Origin: a virus
Taxonomy: Duplodnaviria > Heunggongvirae > Uroviricota > Caudoviricetes
Direction: 5' to 3' (one strand)
Virus record (IMG/VR): IMGVR_UViG_3300045988_138358
DNA length: 64,000 nucleotides
The translations under genes were made by a program, and so were the position numbers. The notes under the pieces were generated by a model. It was not told the DNA's origin and ran no database searches. It saw only the letters and a list, made by a program, of their open reading frames with translations. Position 1 is the stretch's first letter. Each line of letters starts with the position of its first letter. Below, in pieces: positions 3,803-55,312 of the stretch.

Positions 3803-3830
3803 AAAAAGCCCCAGGCGGGGCTTTTTCTAT
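3803..3830. terminator. bidirectional hairpin terminator between parG-like and dam
   Basis: GCCCC-AGGC-GGGGC stem with A-run before and T-run after; sits where two converging genes meet. Confidence 0.55.
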
Positions 3831-4732
3831 TTGAGCGTTGCAATGATATCGTTAGCGACTATTCGCGTGGATGCTTTGCATGACACGGACCGTCTGGCTG
3901 GCATGTGGTACAGCTTAAAACCGTTTCTTTCGTACAATTCGCGAATTTTTGGCGCGCCACTGTTTGTTATTACTATCTTTGCACCGCGCTGGTGGGCCGC
4001 CACCAACAGTGATACAAGCCGTTTTTGTTCATCGAAAAGGAAGCTATTTCCTGAATAGCTGGTAAATCCCTCTGTATCTGGCAGCGGCTCATACGGCGGA
4101 TCACAAAAAATCACATCGTCTTCACCAGCCGCCTCGATGACACCAGCAAAGTCACCTGATACAAAGGAAGTGTTTTTGAGTACGTCATCAGCCAAAAATG
4201 CCTTCATCTCTGCATGTGGGAAGTAGGGCGCTTTGTATTTGCCATACCCCACGTTGAACTCGCCATTTTGGTTGTACCGCGTTACGCCATTAAAACAGTG
4301 ACGATTAAGGTACAAAAATGCGGCAGCATGATGTAGTTGGTCATACTTTCCTCTGTTAAATGCCTCACGCACTTCGAGGTAAGCGTCAGCGTTGTTGTAA
4401 TTTTTGAAAAAACTATATGACAGCGTGACGAGCGAATGTCCTTCTCGCTGCAATGTCTGATAGAAGTTAATCAGGTCACCGTTAATATCATTAAGCAGGT
4501 TGTGGCGAAATCCTGCATTCGTAAATACGGAACCGCCACCAACGAATGGTTCTATTAACCGCTTACCGTGTGGTAGATGCTCAAGCACTGTAGGCAATTC
4601 TGAGAATTTACCACCTACCCATTTGAATATCGGACGCTCATATTCATCCGGAGTCCGAATGGTGCGCATATAGCTAATTTCAGCCATCGTATCCTGTTTT
4701 TCTATGGCTATGCTTGCTATAGATTTACTCAT
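3827..4732 (-). CDS. dam: DNA adenine methyltransferase (Dam family)
   Basis: KWVGGK, NRHCFNG and DPPY motifs of Dam-type N6-adenine methyltransferases; start set at MSKS, 2 nt after the stop of the upstream gene (ORF track extends to 4828). Confidence 0.85.
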   Translation of the reverse strand: MSKSIASIAIEKQDTMAEISYMRTIRTPDEYERPIFKWVGGKFSELPTVLEHLPHGKRLIEPFVGGGSVFTNAGFRHNLLNDINGDLINFYQTLQREGHSLVTLSYSFFKNYNNADAYLEVREAFNRGKYDQLHHAAAFLYLNRHCFNGVTRYNQNGEFNVGYGKYKAPYFPHAEMKAFLADDVLKNTSFVSGDFAGVIEAAGEDDVIFCDPPYEPLPDTEGFTSYSGNSFLFDEQKRLVSLLVAAHQRGAKIVITNSGAPKIRELYERNGFKLYHMPARRSVSCKASTRIVANDIIATLK

Positions 4733-5477
4733 AGAGCACCCCCTTATTCGCTTCGAAAACTGCCTTTGCGAATCCATGTGGAGTAGCACTTCGAAAATTA
4801 GCCCTGTCAGGCCCTGGTGGCGCGGCATGGATTCTGTTATCTGGCTTGCCTAATGATTCGTCCATTAGGGCATCAGGCATGACAAAGCCCTGGCCGCTCC
4901 AGAGGCATGTTTTTTTTGTGTAGTTATCTTCCTGACAATATGCAGTGAAGAAGTAAGGGTGAAAGATGTGATCTGGCTTACGCCAGAATGTCGATATTTT
5001 GCTGACCGGATTTTCAATCATGTACGGACAACCGATCATCTTTGCAATGTCATAACACTGCCAGACAACCTGCATTGCTTTGAACTGGAAAACCGGATCT
5101 TTATTAGCCTTGTCCGAAAACCAGCGCGCGCCGGAAACAGCCAGGTCAGTACACGGTGGGAACCCGGCCAGAAACACGATGCGCTGCAAATTCTTACGGA
5201 GAAAAGCGTATACTTCATCGCTATCGATGATCGCACTAATACGCGTCAGAACGGCACCTGATTGCATCCGCTCGTCACTGGTCGATAAGTGCTGTGGATC
5301 GACGATAGCGGCATCGACACCGTATTCCAGCCAGGGGGCAACCATTGCCCCCGTAAAATCACAAAGACTCACAACAAGCTGTCGGTTATTATCGTTCTGC
5401 TTCACCGCCAATGGCCTCCACCAGCGCGTTAAACAGTGCAGATAATTCGCCCGTAAAGAGCACGAAATCAGCATCAA
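4725..5477 (-). CDS. C5-cytosine methyltransferase-like protein (short)
   Basis: FLAGFPPC (PC motif) and IENP (ENV-like) motifs; true start may be a GTG nearer the rdgC stop since the track start overlaps rdgC by about 90 nt. Confidence 0.55.
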
Positions 5478-31151: not shown

Positions 31152-32180
31152 TTACGAATCCATCAGGCGGCTATTAGCCCCCACAGACACGCCGCCACGG
31201 CGAAGATACCGCATAAGTGTTTCCGGTTTCTTCCAGGTTCCTTCCTGCATGATCTCCACCATAGACACCTGCTTTTCAGCCATATCAATAGCGGCCCCGA
31301 CGCGTGCACTATGCCCGGTCCACGTCCGGTATCTTCCTTTGTTTGGCGTAGCATCTCTTTTATTCAGCAACACCCAGGCGTCGCTGAATATTTTCTCCAT
31401 TGCAGGTGCAGTAAGGGGCGTTGTCGTGATCCTGGCCTTATTGCTACGGTGTATCGGCGGGAACAGCACTGCGTCAGGATGTTCGCGAAGCCCGGAAACA
31501 TCCAGCCAGTCATTCAGCACAGCGGTAGTGCGACGGGAAAGCACCTTATCAAGCCCGGCGGCGGTCGTTATTGTCTTCGTGTGTGAAATATGTAGCGTGA
31601 CAGTGTCACCTGTTTGGTCCAGATCTCCTACACGAATACGCGAGATTTCCGACATACGCATCAGCGTATTGTATGCAACAAAGAGAAAAGCCCGGTTGCG
31701 CAGGTCCACCAGCCGTTCTGACCTGGACAACAGGACGTCGAGCAGTTTCAGATCGTCCCACCGCAGCGGTATAGCCTGGCCTGTTCGTTCGCCTTTTTCA
31801 GTTGCCGCTTCGCGCCGGATGCGCCGCATAGCCAGAGAAACACTTTTATCATCCGAAAGTGGCGGAAGGCCACAATGCGAAAGCAGCATGTTCAGCATGG
31901 CGTAGTGCTTATCAATGGTGGTCGAAGCCAGATCGGCATCATGCAGCTGAAGAAAATACTCGCGGGCCATTTCTGGTGAGATCGGAAACCAGGCAAGCTG
32001 GCGAGCGTGACACCAGCGCGCCCAGGAATGAAACACCAAACGGAGGTCGCGCAGAGTATTCGGCGCATAAGCTCCCTGGTCATTCATGAACCGCATAAAG
32101 TTTTCTGCGGCTTCCTGGTACTCTTTGCCAATGTTGCGCAGAAAACCACCGGAACTGCCAGAGATAATTAATTCACTCAT
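31152..32180 (-). CDS. dre: Cre-family tyrosine recombinase, Dre-like
   Basis: Roughly 45% identity to P1 Cre by eye across the catalytic domain (SLAMRRIRRE, AYNTLMRMSEISRIRV, WTGHSARVGAA, LMRYLR); paired with a rox-like site. Confidence 0.9.
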   Translation of the reverse strand: MSELIISGSSGGFLRNIGKEYQEAAENFMRFMNDQGAYAPNTLRDLRLVFHSWARWCHARQLAWFPISPEMAREYFLQLHDADLASTTIDKHYAMLNMLLSHCGLPPLSDDKSVSLAMRRIRREAATEKGERTGQAIPLRWDDLKLLDVLLSRSERLVDLRNRAFLFVAYNTLMRMSEISRIRVGDLDQTGDTVTLHISHTKTITTAAGLDKVLSRRTTAVLNDWLDVSGLREHPDAVLFPPIHRSNKARITTTPLTAPAMEKIFSDAWVLLNKRDATPNKGRYRTWTGHSARVGAAIDMAEKQVSMVEIMQEGTWKKPETLMRYLRRGGVSVGANSRLMDS

Positions 32181-32332: not shown

Positions 32333-32364
32333 TAACTTTAAATAATGCCAATTATCTAAAGTTA
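32333..32364. other. rox-like recombination site (14-bp inverted arms, 4-bp spacer)
   Basis: TAACTTTAAATAAT-GCCA-ATTATCTAAAGTTA; differs at one right-arm position from the D6 rox site as recalled; 152 bp upstream of the recombinase start. Confidence 0.8.
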
Positions 32365-33674: not shown

Positions 33675-35183
33675 TCAAATATCCAGATCTGGCATTTCTA
33701 CATCTGCAAGAACCTGATCGCGGAAGGTAGCCATTTCAGCGCCGATATCTTCATTAGCAGGAACATAGTCCACCAGCATTGTAAAGCAGTAGGTATCCCA
33801 TCGGTCAGGTGATTTGATGTTCAGCTTTTGCCGCATGTGCTCCTTGCGCATCATCGCCATCTTCCCTTCTTCATTAAGTAAAAAGGGGATTTTTGACGCT
33901 TGCTCTGCCGTTTTAGGGTCGCTGTCTATTCGCATACGACCTGACTTTATGGCATCACGAGCCATAATATTTGCGTAGGCACGCTGGTTAACAAAACGCT
34001 CCTTGTCTTTGTTCGAAAACATGGGTTTCCCCCACCGAATCCGTACCGGATTAGCCCCACGGCGCACCAGCTGCGCACAGGTATCTGAACCAAAACCGTC
34101 TGCGTCAACCGCGATTGTAATATTCGGGTATTTATCCGGCGTGCATTCGTTGTATATAAAGTCAGCAAAAGCCAGCGGGTCCATAGTCCCTGGCATTTCC
34201 ATTACCTTAAAGTTAACAACACGCCGCTTTTCCCGGTGACCAGACACTTTACAGATATTAAGAACTGACTTGTCTCGCCCGTTACCAACGTCAGCAGTAG
34301 CCACCCATCCCCAGTTTTTCTCCAACAACACCTTGCGCCGCGCAGCGCGATCGCATTCATCACGACCAAGCAAATAGCCGTTAATCTCCCGAGGAAACTG
34401 ACCAAGAACCTTGACCATGTACTCAATAGAATCGCGCCCGCCATATTCTAGGAGTTTCTGCCTGATGAATTGTGGTGTGACGAACGGTGATTCTTCTGAG
34501 TTAAGAACAATTGCTGTCCAGATCCCTTTCGGGTTGTCTGGGGTTTTAGCTTGAGAATGGTGCGAATCGTAGAAATAACCACTTGGCCTTGTTGGCTGGG
34601 ATAGCATCAACATTCGGTTATCTTCTTCAGTCAGAGCGCCAGTCATTACGCCGATCGCTTTATCAGATATACCTGATGCTTCATCCAGAATTAGAAGCAA
34701 ATGTGCCGCGTGCTCCCCCGCCAGAGCTTCTTCGTTACCGAGTCGATAGCCTTTGCAGAGAACTTCCCAGATCCCCTTTCGAGAGCGTTCATAAAACATG
34801 GTGTCAGACAGGACAAAATAGGTCTGTAACCACCCATGACGCTTAACGGCATTCGCCCAATACTGTTTAACGTATTTGAATACACCTGTCTTAACCTGAC
34901 CTATTTTGTTAGCAACAATGATGACACGGGCATCGGGGAACAGAATCAAATAAATCAGCAACAACATAGCCGTTAGCGACGATTTCCCTGTACCGTGACC
35001 AGAGGTAACAGTGGTTCTGCTCCCTTTTTGCTGTACGGACTGGATAATCTCCTGCTGCTGGTGGGAGGGAAACATCCCGAATATATCAACAACAGCCTGG
35101 GTAAAGTTGTAGCGGTATTTGATTACCATATCGCGCCAGCGTGGATCGCTGGTGACGCATTTAATCTTGCGCCCACCAGCCAT
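33675..35183 (-). CDS. pacB: terminase large subunit (PacB-like)
   Basis: Walker A TSGHGTGKS, Walker B LLILDEASG, C-terminal Asp-rich nuclease-like domain. Confidence 0.85.
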   Translation of the reverse strand: MAGGRKIKCVTSDPRWRDMVIKYRYNFTQAVVDIFGMFPSHQQQEIIQSVQQKGSRTTVTSGHGTGKSSLTAMLLLIYLILFPDARVIIVANKIGQVKTGVFKYVKQYWANAVKRHGWLQTYFVLSDTMFYERSRKGIWEVLCKGYRLGNEEALAGEHAAHLLLILDEASGISDKAIGVMTGALTEEDNRMLMLSQPTRPSGYFYDSHHSQAKTPDNPKGIWTAIVLNSEESPFVTPQFIRQKLLEYGGRDSIEYMVKVLGQFPREINGYLLGRDECDRAARRKVLLEKNWGWVATADVGNGRDKSVLNICKVSGHREKRRVVNFKVMEMPGTMDPLAFADFIYNECTPDKYPNITIAVDADGFGSDTCAQLVRRGANPVRIRWGKPMFSNKDKERFVNQRAYANIMARDAIKSGRMRIDSDPKTAEQASKIPFLLNEEGKMAMMRKEHMRQKLNIKSPDRWDTYCFTMLVDYVPANEDIGAEMATFRDQVLADVEMPDLDI

Positions 35184-36547
35184 TAGTCATCCTCCGGCGG
35201 TTCTATCGCAATATCATCATCTCCGGCGTCATACCCTGCATCTGATGCATCATAATCACCGTAAATTTCAGCCGTTGCCGAAGGGTCAATGTCCAACTCT
35301 TCATCGTTGGCCTCGAATTCCCCAGCCTTACGCTCGCCATTGTGGTCGTAATCTCCGCACCCCAGATCTTCAACAATGGTTGCCACATCCGCCCGGCGCT
35401 CTGCCAGCCATTGCGGATGGTTAGCCTGAAGCGATGCAAACTCCTTCGCTTCTTTGTCCAGCTGTTCATCATCAACATCATTGATGTCAGAAACTGGAGG
35501 TTCGAGAAGAGTGATAGCTTTCGCCGCGCGCGCCGCGAGGATAGCCGGGACACTGACACCCTGACGCTCGATGTATTCAGCAACACCGATATCGTCCAGC
35601 TCCTCGCGCTCACGCATACGTATAGCGGCGGCGATAACTCTGGCTGCGCGTGCGTCAGCGCCAATGCGATATTCAATCTCTTTGCCACGCTGTTCGGCCT
35701 GTAGGCGTGCTAATTCGAGTTTTTCTCTGGCCTCGGCCTCTCTGAATGCTTGCTGGCGAGCACCCTGACGAAGTTTTTCATCACCCTGTCGCAGCTTTTG
35801 TTCGGACTGATATATCGCTGCCAACCTACTGATAAAATCGTTCATGTAGTAGGCCGCGTCACTGATTAGACCGAGAAGTCGCTGCCCAGGGTGCATTCCT
35901 TCTGGCTGTTCATCACCCAGGGCGTCTATCTCCGCCTGTAGGCGTTCGGCCTCCTGATCAACAATGCTTTGGTACTGAAGTGCGCGTTCTTGCGCCATTT
36001 GAATTGCTAACCGCAGGTGCTCTTCTGCGCCGTTCTTCATCATGTCGCGAGCCACACTCGTAGTGGGCAACGTGGCACGCTGCACAGCACCGCCAGGGAT
36101 CATTGCTGAAGATCCCTCGATTTTTGAGGCGCATTTATCTTCGGTGGGGATCATTTTCGCCATTTTTTCGCGCAATGATCTCCTGACAGATTCTTTTATC
36201 TCATTGTTATTATTTGCATTATTTTCATGATCCGAAGTTTTCTTTCTCGGCATACTTCGGAAAGAACCTGTGCCCTGCGAATTGTCAATTTCTGTAAATT
36301 TTGTTGTTTCTGTACCCTCTTCTGGTCTTTTTTTTGCTCTTCCTGCCCGTTTTTTTTGAGGTGATTTGGTGCTTTTTTTTGTAGTCTTCACCTGCGACCG
36401 CACCTCATTTTTTTTCATATTGAGATGCTTTCTGGCGGTATTGAAGCTAAGGTCGTGTTGCTCGCAGTATTCCTTTACGGTGATCCCTTTTTCTTCACGC
36501 AACGCTATAAATTTGGCGCGGTGCTCTTCCCAATTAACCAGACTCAT
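35183..36547 (-). CDS. pacA: terminase small-subunit / pac-recognition protein (PacA-like)
   Basis: N-terminal HTH (EYCEQHDLSFNTARKHL), long basic and acidic coiled regions; stop overlaps pacB start. Confidence 0.65.
   Translation of the reverse strand: MSLVNWEEHRAKFIALREEKGITVKEYCEQHDLSFNTARKHLNMKKNEVRSQVKTTKKSTKSPQKKRAGRAKKRPEEGTETTKFTEIDNSQGTGSFRSMPRKKTSDHENNANNNNEIKESVRRSLREKMAKMIPTEDKCASKIEGSSAMIPGGAVQRATLPTTSVARDMMKNGAEEHLRLAIQMAQERALQYQSIVDQEAERLQAEIDALGDEQPEGMHPGQRLLGLISDAAYYMNDFISRLAAIYQSEQKLRQGDEKLRQGARQQAFREAEAREKLELARLQAEQRGKEIEYRIGADARAARVIAAAIRMREREELDDIGVAEYIERQGVSVPAILAARAAKAITLLEPPVSDINDVDDEQLDKEAKEFASLQANHPQWLAERRADVATIVEDLGCGDYDHNGERKAGEFEANDEELDIDPSATAEIYGDYDASDAGYDAGDDDIAIEPPEDD
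36095..36235. other. candidate pac site: GATC-hexamer cluster inside pacA
   Basis: Five GATC within about 135 bp (near 36098, 36111, 36149, 36177, 36229), each in a TGATC-like hexamer; P1 pac is a cluster of TGATCA hexamers in the 5' part of pacA. Confidence 0.4.
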
Positions 36548-36936
36548 AAAGCAACACCACGCTTTTTAACGGCGGCATTCCACAGCTTATTCGCCATGTC
36601 CACCAGCTCTCGTTGCTCTTTTCGCGCCTGTTCGACTGATTTCCTGCTACAGTTTTTAACCAGTAAGCTACCGTATTCAGGGGTGCGCCCGCGCACCTTG
36701 AACTGATATCCGTTCAGGCCATGCAACCAGTATTTCCGTGGGTAAACACGATCATCAAGCTCACAAATAGCTCGGCTTGACCGCACAAAATGCCGAATGA
36801 TGTTGGTTACACTTACTCGTGAAACATGAAGGTGAGGATATTTTTCTTTAGCTAGAGTGGTGATTTCGGTGACTGTCAGATAGCAGTCAGCCCTAATCAT
36901 GATATCCGCAATTTCTGCGCTGCTGATATGCTCCAT
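36544..36936 (-). CDS. small HTH protein upstream of pacA, possible late-promoter activator (Lpa-like)
   Basis: 130 aa; first gene after an operator pair; assignment is by position only. Confidence 0.3.
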   Translation of the reverse strand: MEHISSAEIADIMIRADCYLTVTEITTLAKEKYPHLHVSRVSVTNIIRHFVRSSRAICELDDRVYPRKYWLHGLNGYQFKVRGRTPEYGSLLVKNCSRKSVEQARKEQRELVDMANKLWNAAVKKRGVAL

Positions 36937-53150: not shown

Positions 53151-54113
53151 TCATCCCCTAAATCCCGCAGGGATTGACCAATCCTCACGGTCAAATTCAG
53201 ACCGATAGCCACGCTGTTTCATCAGGTCAAAGGCTTCACCAATGGTTGCACACCCCTGGGAGCCAGAATAATCCATTGAGAAATCCAGGGCACTGGATTG
53301 TTTAGGCTTATTCACTGCGGTAGCGGCACTACGTATCCATGCAAATTTTTTTGCCAGCTTTTCAGCGGTACGATACAGAGCCTGCCGTTTTGTGTGCCCC
53401 TCGTCTGAACGACGCTTTGCAGCTCTCGCTTTTGCCGCCGCCAGGCAGTGGTTGGTATGTTCTTCCCTGATTGCTGTTTTTTTATCCAGTACCCCGTGAT
53501 CCGTTTGAGAACTATCTGCTGGTGAAGCCTTTGGCTGAACCGCGCATGATCTTTCTCTTCTTTTGGCTATAGAGTGACTCTTATTTTCTATTGGCTGTTC
53601 ATTTTGAACATGGGGGGACTTGTTCAATTTGAACAGGGGGTTCCCAGTTTCAAAAAAATAACGAACCTTTGAAATCAACTGCTTAACCAGTTTTGTGGCG
53701 TTGGCAAATTTGATGCCCTGCTTACCCCCTATCTCCATTGCTACATGAATGAAGTGGAGAAATTGTGTCGTAAACCGATATACGTTACACACCTGGGCAT
53801 TGTTATTCGCTACCTGATGTTGCTTAACAAGCATTCCGCACTTCGTCGCTTCAGCAAATGCCCGGCGTACAGTAGAAATACTGCGTCCTGTAATCTCGGA
53901 CATATCAGCATATGAGCGACGGATCATGTATTCATCGGTAGACCCTGCCAGGTTGGCGAACTCGGCAATAATGGCGCTATGTGAAGGAGAAAGAAGACCA
54001 CTATGACGAGCAAAAAAACTCAACTGATGACCTTTGATTTTTTTGTGGTATTCAGTGTTGTTTTTATACTCAGAAGTGTTGAAAGTTACTGAAACTGAAT
54101 TTAAAATATTCAT
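53151..54113 (-). CDS. repL: RepL-like replication protein (putative)
   Basis: HTH segment DMSEITGRSISTVRRAFAEATKCGMLV; internal repeats and an operator-linked promoter parallel the P1 lytic replicon. Confidence 0.4.
   Translation of the reverse strand: MNILNSVSVTFNTSEYKNNTEYHKKIKGHQLSFFARHSGLLSPSHSAIIAEFANLAGSTDEYMIRRSYADMSEITGRSISTVRRAFAEATKCGMLVKQHQVANNNAQVCNVYRFTTQFLHFIHVAMEIGGKQGIKFANATKLVKQLISKVRYFFETGNPLFKLNKSPHVQNEQPIENKSHSIAKRRERSCAVQPKASPADSSQTDHGVLDKKTAIREEHTNHCLAAAKARAAKRRSDEGHTKRQALYRTAEKLAKKFAWIRSAATAVNKPKQSSALDFSMDYSGSQGCATIGEAFDLMKQRGYRSEFDREDWSIPAGFRG
53604..53640. repeat. TTGAACA / TGTTCAA repeats with G-runs inside the repL-like gene (candidate origin)
   Basis: TTGAACATGGGGGGAC-TTGTTCAA-TTTGAACAGGGGG. 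Confidence 0.35.
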
Positions 54114-54207: not shown

Positions 54208-54313
54208 TGGCAGTCGCTACCGGAGCAGTGACCGCGATCCTACTCGATCACATCGGACAGGATCAACAGTGTATATAAATACACTATGTTAGAAATTTAA
54301 TTTCATGCAGCGG

Positions 54314-55312
54314 TTATCCCCGTCGCGAAACGAAGAGTAATGGGGTAGTATTTTTGCTCTCCTTCGGCGATAACTCCGGCTCTTTCTTGCCTGATATCGG
54401 CAAGCCATAAGTCGCATTTGCCCCCAGAGATTCAAGCATCGCAGCCACTATGCGAGCATCATCTTCAGACTGCATACGGCAGAGCGCCCGACGCTGTTCT
54501 GCGCTGATAAAAACAGGCAGCTCCTGGATAGCATCACGCAAAATCCTACGGCATTTCTTCGCATCTTCGCCCTGGCTTTCCATCATTGCGGCCTGGTTGC
54601 GTAATTTGTCGCGAAGTTGCATATTTTCCACTTCAAGGAGCATCAATTCTGACTCAAGGGCTTCACGCTGTGCTGACTCGAAAATAGCCTGCTGATTCTT
54701 CATTGCTGAAAAGTGGTGAACAAGATCCGTAGCCGCGTTATCGGTAAAACCTTGTTCGATAAGTGCCGCATGAATAGCCGCGTCGCGCTCTTCTGCTGAT
54801 TCAAGCATCAGGCTTTTCTTGTCGAGGCTGATATAGTTAGGAACAGTTACGTAATCAAAGCCGTGGAAAGACTTTACCAGGGATACCGATGAATCTGGAC
54901 CAGATGTAGCCCACGACCAACCACCAGCACCAGAGTTAATCATGCCCTGAACAATACGCCCGGTGTCTGTATCCAGTATTTCCTGCGTATGAGTAACAAT
55001 GCCGTTGTCGTCAATCGAAATGTCGATAGTCCTGTTTGACGGCACGTTCTCCAATACAACAGGCTTCCCATCTACCATCACAACAGAGACTTCCGGCAAG
55101 TTCAGGCTTTTCGTTTTGTTATAGTGCATCGCCCGGCGACCATGACCGTAATAACCATACATCTCACCCAGCGCGATACGCTCTTTTGTTTCTGGCGAGT
55201 TGAATGTGTCTCGTACCGACTGAATGACGTAATTTCGGTTGTTCTGCGGTGTGTGTTTGCGGATTTTCTCTACCAGGGAGAAGCGATCCGTAACAGTATT
55301 CAGTGATTGCAT
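54314..55312 (-). CDS. head morphogenesis protein (protease or scaffold, tentative)
   Basis: 332 aa with C-terminal coiled coil, immediately after the putative portal gene. Confidence 0.3.
   Translation of the reverse strand: MQSLNTVTDRFSLVEKIRKHTPQNNRNYVIQSVRDTFNSPETKERIALGEMYGYYGHGRRAMHYNKTKSLNLPEVSVVMVDGKPVVLENVPSNRTIDISIDDNGIVTHTQEILDTDTGRIVQGMINSGAGGWSWATSGPDSSVSLVKSFHGFDYVTVPNYISLDKKSLMLESAEERDAAIHAALIEQGFTDNAATDLVHHFSAMKNQQAIFESAQREALESELMLLEVENMQLRDKLRNQAAMMESQGEDAKKCRRILRDAIQELPVFISAEQRRALCRMQSEDDARIVAAMLESLGANATYGLPISGKKEPELSPKESKNTTPLLFVSRRG

Follow-up and report, generated by a model that had tools for sequence, protein, structure and literature searches.

The DNA analysed here is a 64-kb stretch (the window) of a D6-like element, and this report concerns a cluster of five GATC tetramers inside its pacA gene that the original prediction had put forward as a candidate packaging-initiation (pac) site. 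Positions are given in window coordinates unless marked as pacA nucleotides (nt). pacA is an open reading frame (ORF) of 1365 nt and 454 codons on the minus strand (35183–36547) and contains the flagged interval. It is 94% identical at the DNA level to pacA of Escherichia phage D6, and its product is 100% identical to the pacase A subunit of E. coli plasmid NZ_CP047663.1 over residues 1–427 (94% of the length). PacA matches the terminase family phrog_1711 (E = 5e-178), with N-terminal matches to small-terminase phrogs, and aligns collinearly with PacA of phage P1 (E = 2e-9). A tblastn search of the phage collection with PacA returned D6 alone at E ≤ 1e-5, and P1 was compared directly from record NC_005856. 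E. coli, Salmonella, and Shigella frequently carry plasmid prophages of the D6 type, and 141 plasmid records match this PacA. As its PacA is merely 21–25% identical in amino acids to that of P1, though collinear, we treat the element as a D6-like plasmid prophage that is a distant relative of P1.

The five GATC tetramers start at 36098, 36111, 36149, 36177, and 36229, a span of 131 bp (36098–36232 overall). Read along the gene strand they lie at pacA nt 316, 368, 396, 434, and 447, so that the array occupies nt 316–450, or 23–33% of the gene; the claim of five GATC within about 135 bp in the 5' third of pacA was therefore correct. With 227 GATC in 64 kb, 0.48 would be expected per 135 bp, and the enrichment of 10.4-fold bears out the roughly tenfold excess that had been proposed (Poisson P = 1.4e-4 for five GATC in a pre-specified interval). 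No five-GATC group in the window is tighter, nor is any in the complete D6 genome (91,159 bp).

Element sequence and conservation of the array

An oriented comparison of the sites across lineages identified a common asymmetric 9-mer, AATGATCC(C), which occurs in both orientations and is equivalent to TGATCY on either strand. The five copies are as follows.

Element 1: 36226–36234, plus strand (minus relative to the gene), CATGATCCG; GATC at 36229–36232, pacA nt 316
Element 2: 36174–36182, plus strand (minus relative to the gene), AATGATCTC; GATC at 36177–36180, pacA nt 368
Element 3: 36147–36155, minus strand (plus relative to the gene), exact AATGATCCC; GATC at 36149–36152, pacA nt 396
Element 4: 36108–36116, plus strand (minus relative to the gene), GAAGATCCC; GATC at 36111–36114, pacA nt 434; the most degenerate copy
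Element 5: 36096–36104, minus strand (plus relative to the gene), exact AATGATCCC; GATC at 36098–36101, pacA nt 447

The Dam target GATC is present in all five elements, and the gene-strand hexamers at sites 1–5 read GGATCA, AGATCA, TGATCC, GGATCT, and TGATCC. Each GATC had been described as lying in a TGATC-like hexamer; this is true of four of the five, which have TGATC on one strand, and fails for site 4 (36111), which in the window has no T/A flank. Only two exact copies of AATGATCCC exist in the window and in the whole D6 genome, namely elements 3 and 5.

Successive elements in this single array are separated by 52, 28, 38, and 13 bp. The same-orientation pairs 1/2 and 3/5 are spaced at 52 and 51 bp, each about five helical turns, the latter pair being a direct repeat; the remaining spacings do not come to whole turns. 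A dyad centred on pacA nt 383 relates element 1 to element 5 and element 2 to element 3, a symmetry that element 4 breaks. We regard this geometry, both helical phasing and dyad, as suggestive only.

Conservation was assessed with D6-like pacA genes from plasmid and IMG/VR collections. These form three deep lineages with PacA about 75% identical, represented by the window and D6, by E. coli CP085065 (Ec), and by Shigella dysenteriae CP026808 (Sd); a more distant relative, the IMG/VR contig L036, has a PacA that is 54% identical. The three lineages align without gaps over 1365 nt. Within the linker (nt 130–480), 48% of columns are invariant and protein identity is 17–27% per 30-residue block, and all five GATC are invariant at identical offsets. 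The probability that five of five tetramers in the linker would be invariant by chance is 1.6e-5 from the background rate and 1.2e-4 by permutation. The longest invariant runs in the linker are AAATGATCCC (element 3), AATGATCCC, GATCATT, and CGGATCA, all centred on GATC sites, in a ranking that leaves out a 17-nt run (nt 130–146) at the conserved 5' edge of the analysed interval.

The same pattern is seen in a larger set of 21 unique D6-like sequences, in which 199 of 351 linker columns vary, in contrast to two of the 20 GATC columns (hypergeometric P = 1.1e-5), making the GATC columns about sixfold less variable than their surroundings. Both variable columns are singleton T-to-C changes (GATC to GACC), at pacA nt 368 and 396. 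The IMG/VR D6-like contig lacking the GATC at nt 368 is L022, and the one lacking that at nt 396 is L031. All five sites are kept in 16 of 18 D6-like sequences, and all seven in 42 of 45 P1-like sequences, the fourth left hexamer being missing from the other three; natural loss of a single site is thus about as rare in the D6-like as in the P1-like group.

Individual elements show how the tetramer is retained while the encoded residues change. At element 1, CGGATCA is invariant in the three D6-like lineages, and the hexamer GGATCA is kept while TCG (Ser) gives way to GCG (Ala) in the codon before it. At element 2, GATCATT is invariant, with AGA-TCA (Arg-Ser) in the window and GGA-TCA (Gly-Ser) in its relatives, and the element reads AATGATCCC in other lineages. 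The GATC of element 4 is likewise invariant, the codons being GGA-TCT in the window and GGA-TCA or AGA-TCA (Gly to Arg) in relatives; in lineage Ec this element is a perfect AATGATCCC, and four of the five copies there are perfect. Element 5 is AATGATCCC in all lineages, L036 included. Because the sites persist through amino acid replacements (R/G-S, S/A-D-H, and G/R-S), and they are also kept at synonymous third positions, selection must act on the DNA and not only on the protein.

Contig L036 has a downstream array of five elements at nt 380–471, of which elements 2, 3, and 5 are common with the window. Element 1 is missing from it, and two of its GATC, at nt 397 and nt 435, fall at places without GATC in the window; an insertion may have shifted element 4 to give the one at nt 435. 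L036 also has an upstream arm at nt 157–181, consisting of one TGATCA followed by two copies of AATGATCCC (nt 157, 169, and 181), which lies inside a 4-codon insertion.

An alignment of eight PacA proteins, from P1 to the D6-like ones, shows no variation at residues W6, H9, G21, Y27, L33, N36, T37, and R39, and a single-sequence AlphaFold model predicts a helical N-terminal domain at residues 6–57 with a predicted local distance difference test score (pLDDT) of 72–88, the mean for the whole model being 61. Residues 58–170 are mostly below pLDDT 50 in this low-confidence model. The array lies in a fast-evolving, loosely constrained, and probably disordered linker of PacA, which would leave the DNA there free to evolve as a cis-acting site.

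A putative recognition helix is encoded at 36425–36441 (PacA residues 36–41). It reads NTARKHL in the D6-like clades using the TGATCC-type element, and NTARR(Y/E)L, NTVRRQF, or NTCRRHL in clades using TGATCA; in L036, the H-L-N end of the motif alone was read. Judging from these sequences, recognition helix and DNA element may co-vary.

Comparison with P1 and other PacA clades

The gene neighbours of pacA match the P1/D6 immC-pac region. The relevant features of the window are these.

35183–36547, minus strand: pacA, P1 PacA-like small terminase (pacase A subunit, 454 amino acids), host of the array
33675–35183, minus strand: pacB, large terminase (pacase B), with matches to Terminase_6N and to the large terminase phrog_2; the D6 homologue is annotated pacB
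36544–36936, minus strand: lpa, with a match to PF25716
32566–33603, plus strand: c1-like ORF, a repressor by position and size relative to the annotated D6 c1, without a Pfam match
32333–32364, plus strand: rox-like recombination site; 31 of its 32 positions agree with rox of D6, the equivalent of lox
31152–32180, minus strand: tyrosine recombinase
3827–4828, minus strand: Dam-family N6-adenine DNA methyltransferase (PF02086, E = 1.2e-55; TIGR00571 dam, 247.6 bits against a cutoff of 114.85)

The product of pacB is presumed to be the nuclease-ATPase partner of PacA. The last feature in the list confirms, at the level of the protein family, the earlier statement that the element encodes its own Dam; from family membership, its specificity would be for GATC. 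The order is pacA-pacB-c1-rox-recombinase, with the rox-like site 3.75 kb from the array in the direction of pacA transcription. The sole mismatch of that site to D6 rox (ATTATCTAAAGTTA for ATTATTTAAAGTTA) falls in one inverted-repeat arm, so that its arms are no longer perfectly symmetric.

In P1, pac is a 161-bp (161–162) site with seven TGATCA/G repeats in two arms (HEX4 and HEX3), an IHF (integration host factor) site, and central cleavage; the hemimethylated site is bound, and full methylation promotes cutting (PMC10028697). Cleavage of P1 pac requires Dam methylation. In record NC_005856 the hexamers are at pacA nt 195, 202, 214, and 229 and at nt 325, 337, and 348, with an eighth, TGATCG, at nt 376; the annotation puts the IHF site at nt 256–268 and the cleavage points at nt 276–285. 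The site thus covers nt 195–353 of a 1194-nt gene, in the order pacA-pacB-c1-lox, with 4.0 kb from pac to lox.

The D6-type array resembles this site in several respects. Both consist of multiple GATC elements within the 5' third of pacA, in the same variable linker that follows the N-terminal helix-turn-helix of PacA, and both stand in the gene order pacA-pacB-c1-lox/rox, with the recombination site at 3.75 kb in the window and 4.0 kb in P1. Both elements also encode a Dam-family methylase, and natural variants of both show occasional loss of a single site. In the protein alignment the D6 array begins at the start of the P1 right arm and extends about 100 nt further downstream, and the P1 left-arm region aligns with a Lys/Ala-rich stretch of the window PacA that is without GATC.

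The differences are equally clear. Whereas P1 uses palindromic TGATCA/G, the D6-type element is the asymmetric 9-mer (TGATCY) in both orientations. P1 has 4 + 3 elements (nt 195–234 and 325–353), in contrast to five in one 131-bp array at nt 316–450 in the window. The spacer of about 90–96 bp that holds the P1 cleavage site has no clear counterpart in the window, where the match to an IHF site is weak.

Seven PacA clades, including P1, carry clusters of GATC elements in the same linker. Those of P1, Pantoea, Leclercia, Citrobacter, and E. kobei are of the TGATC type and fall at pacA nt ~150–380, with the following arms.

Pantoea: left arm at nt 154–237, seven TGATCA, the first six (nt 154–214) at a 12-bp period; right arm at nt 363 and 379
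Leclercia: left arm at nt 175, 187, and 192; right arm at nt 318
Citrobacter: left arm at nt 175 (nt 187 too in some); right arm at nt 327 and 354
E. kobei: left arm at nt 192, 199, 211, and 234; right arm at nt 351

From clade to clade the clusters correspond to wholly different peptides (D-H repeats, L-I-T-D-Q, M-I-I-D-H), yet they share the DNA motif. The Pantoea-type contigs (L007, L011–L013, and L040–L047) have a much more regular array than P1: the coding sequence of a repeated (S/N/H)-D-H peptide holds five to seven TGATCA at nt 154–237 (in most contigs six or seven), with a strict 12-bp period at nt 154–214, and two more sites follow 126 bp downstream. As far as we found, the pacA clusters of Pantoea, Leclercia, Citrobacter, E. 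kobei, and L036 are uncharacterised. The window shares with all of them the position of its cluster in the PacA linker, and with L036 also the AATGATCCC element. Unlike these two-armed sites, however, the D6 lineages keep the downstream array alone. On the simplest history suggested by the sequences, the ancestral site had two arms and the upstream one was lost in the D6 lineages, L036 being an informative intermediate.

Other headful phages also carry pac inside the small-terminase gene, as in P22 gene 3, SPP1 gene 1, and Sf6. The D6-type array would be like these in that the packaging-initiation site is carried by the gene for its own recognition protein, although the small terminases of P22, SPP1, and Sf6 are unrelated in sequence to PacA. 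To our knowledge, Dam sites are not the building blocks of their pac sites, for which no gating by methylation is known. The P22 pac site is referred to in PMC11260489.

Packaging and alternative functions

We consider it likely that the five-GATC array is the pac recognition site of the D6-like phage-plasmid, or the major part of it, and most likely as a rearranged version of P1 pac rather than a site new in kind. The main evidence for this reading is conservation, not density. The proposal of a candidate pac site is further upheld by the position in the P1 linker, the recurrence of such clusters across PacA clades, the Dam gene, and the gene geometry. Because the upstream four-hexamer arm of P1 has no counterpart here, the functional site probably extends beyond the flagged interval.

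The sequence data establish that a unique array exists, conserved as DNA and placed like the mapped pac of P1, in an element with a Dam gene. From the analogy with P1 we infer that PacA binds the array, where the cut falls, which way packaging runs, and that methylation matters. The conserved N-terminal helix-turn-helix domain of PacA would bind the 9-mer elements, and PacA bound to the array would recruit PacB, possibly with the help of a host bending protein and with the DNA bent. PacB would cut within or next to the array, and headful packaging would run toward pacB, c1, and rox. Cleavage would be gated, as it is in P1, by adenine methylation of GATC, with the host Dam and the phage Dam both contributing. 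The first P1 headful carries the recombination site in its terminal redundancy, and the 3.75 kb between array and rox-like site would fit the same logic.

Several observations weigh against a P1-like pac at this locus. None of the five elements is a P1-type TGATCA or TGATCG, the array being free of TGATCR. Neither GATC nor a 9-mer-like element is present at pacA nt 64–315, so the upstream arm of P1, L036, and the other clades is without a counterpart and the site departs from the P1 plan, in which two arms flank a central cut; nor were degenerate 9-mer copies that might replace that arm found at ≤2 mismatches between nt 70 and 313. The match to an IHF site in the window is weak (described below). 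Two elements encode a conserved M-I-P tripeptide, and part of the conservation of the array could thus be at the protein level. The uniqueness of AATGATCCC is only partly independent evidence, because the consensus was derived from the cluster itself. The GenBank records of D6 annotate rox and cix sites and no pac. Finally, a five-site span of ≤131 bp arises by chance in 22% of random placements in the window and 30% in the D6 genome. With these scan values (P = 0.22 and 0.30), GATC density reaches significance only when pacA is taken as the prior location (P about 5e-3 in the pacA linker zone, nt 150–480) and not genome-wide, and density was ruled out as sufficient proof of a pac site. The predicted enrichment therefore held narrowly, thanks to that prior location, and did not hold in scans of the whole sequence.

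The last point also speaks for a cluster that arose by chance or as a by-product of coding, from recurring peptides (M-I-P twice, D-H, and G/R-S) in a low-complexity linker, and the M-I-P tripeptides are indeed conserved in the protein. Such an origin would have to accommodate three sites that keep GATC through amino acid changes, synonymous positions that are fixed, the roughly sixfold lower variability of the GATC columns (P = 1e-5), and the unrelated peptides of other clades (D-H repeats, L-I-T, M-I-I-D-H) that encode the same motif in the same place; we consider it very improbable. DNA-level conservation demonstrates a function without saying which one, and the array might instead be a regulatory element bound by Dam/SeqA or PacA, serving the timing or autoregulation of pacA-pacB or a coupling of hemimethylation to replication, with the true cut elsewhere. 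The missing P1-style upstream arm would agree with this, as would a second conserved island, without GATC, 50–70 bp upstream. However, the homologous cluster in P1 was shown experimentally to be pac (PMC10028697), no sigma-70-like promoter was found in or beside the array, and the D6 genome contains no other GATC or 9-mer cluster able to serve as pac. A purely regulatory role also overlaps heavily with a packaging role, since binding of PacA to its own gene is required for pac recognition too, and we judge it unlikely.

A further alternative is that the array is a remnant, the expanded right arm of an ancestral two-armed pac that would be insufficient alone, with packaging directed by another signal or proceeding at low specificity. 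It draws on the alignment of the array with the P1 right arm plus sequence downstream, and on the upstream arm that L036 and all other clades keep and the D6 lineages lack. Decay would then be expected, yet the five sites and their exact spacing are kept, without an indel in a hypervariable linker, in three lineages with about 75% PacA identity. D6 was moreover deposited as a complete phage genome, with E. coli C600 as host. The D6 genome paper reportedly describes D6 as plaque-forming, for which a working packaging signal would be needed. We regard a remnant as improbable.

Returning to the array as a pac site, a broader reading joins the above points. D6-like phages would have rebuilt a P1-type pac by loss of the upstream arm, formation of a compact, roughly dyad-symmetric array of AATGATCC(C) elements (<- 52 bp <- 28 bp -> 51 bp ->), and a change in the PacA recognition helix (ARKHL in the D6-like proteins, ARR[Y/E/Q]L in the TGATCA-type clades); pac arms across the P1 superfamily would turn over rapidly in the disordered linker and co-evolve with PacA, creating packaging-specificity groups. 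As a whole this joint reading is tentative and, in our estimate, rather doubtful. If true, such groups would prevent cross-packaging between P1-like and D6-like plasmid prophages that reside in one cell.

A description of a D6-type pac was not found in the searchable literature, a scope that does not extend to the D6 genome paper (Gilcrease and Casjens 2018), which may discuss pac. As such a pac site is to be expected in a P1 relative, it is not new in kind and would be a modest surprise to specialists; the different element, the single compact array, and the missing upstream arm make it a variant worth defining. P1 pac underlies P1 phagemid, PAC-vector, and transduction technology. Packaging has already been biased by recoding the P1 pac hexamers (PMC10028697). 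Once defined, a D6-type pac, whose element is unlike that of P1, would give an orthogonal packaging signal for engineered delivery and would help to predict cross-packaging or transduction among phage-plasmids. The natural series of sites, with 3 to 9 elements in one or two arms, also offers a route to how a small terminase reads a methylation-gated, multi-element site.

Other sequences in and near the array

Three further sequences in pacA were considered as possible parts of the site.

36197–36209, minus strand: IHF-like sequence TAACAATGAGATA, pacA nt 339–351, between elements 1 and 2
36282–36301, minus strand: conserved island without GATC, AAATTTACAGAAATTGACAA, pacA nt 247–266, 50–70 bp upstream of the array
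36479–36487, plus strand: distal element GGTGATCCC, pacA nt 61–69, with GATC at 36482–36485 (nt 63)

The IHF-like sequence resembles the annotated P1 IHF site (AAACAAAGAGTTA) and is found at the same position in all four lineages (window, Ec, Sd, and L036). It has two mismatches to WATCAANNNNTTR, a level reached 2–6 times per 340 nt in all sequences scanned, and is a weak candidate for an IHF site.

In the conserved island, 16 of 21 positions and six of seven third-codon positions are invariant across the four lineages, including L036, where it sits between the left and right arms. On these sequence grounds it is a candidate spacer or cleavage-region determinant. An IHF site in the island (nt 247–266) was rejected, there being no consensus match at ≤2 mismatches, as was its TTGACA as a promoter, which has no −10 partner and is CTGACA in relatives.

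The GGG-ATC codon pair (Gly-Ile) of the distal element is kept in all D6-like lineages, which lack the arm at nt 155–240; in L036, Pantoea, and Leclercia, the codons for the same Gly-Ile-Thr contain no GATC. Speculatively, this element might be a remote arm that substitutes for the upstream one.

Between the island and the distal element, at 36328–36417 (pacA codons ~44–74), four runs of 8–9 A on the gene strand (T on the plus strand) encode a Lys-rich linker. They are of a slippage-prone type and are not conserved in the CP085065 or Shigella lineages.

In one isolate assembly, a D6-like element comes as two contigs that part exactly at pacA nt 320–329 (window ~36219–36228), nt 1 of L029 (IMGVR_UViG_2537562191_000021) and the end of L109 (IMGVR_UViG_2537562191_000026) having a 10-nt overlap, ATGAAAATAA, directly after element 1. 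The split could be an assembly accident or a real discontinuity. Contig ends were rejected as a proxy for DNA ends, this being a single case directly after a GATC, and it is not taken as evidence of a pac cut.

Elsewhere in the window, the tightest three-site cluster of the element places three GATC in 26 bp (CGATCC, CGATCA, and GGATCA) at 54236–54264. It is intergenic, between a repL-like ORF (53151–54113) and a head-protease-like ORF (54314–55312), follows a terminator-like hairpin and precedes the palindrome TGTATATAAATACACTA, and may belong to a lytic-replication or operator region.

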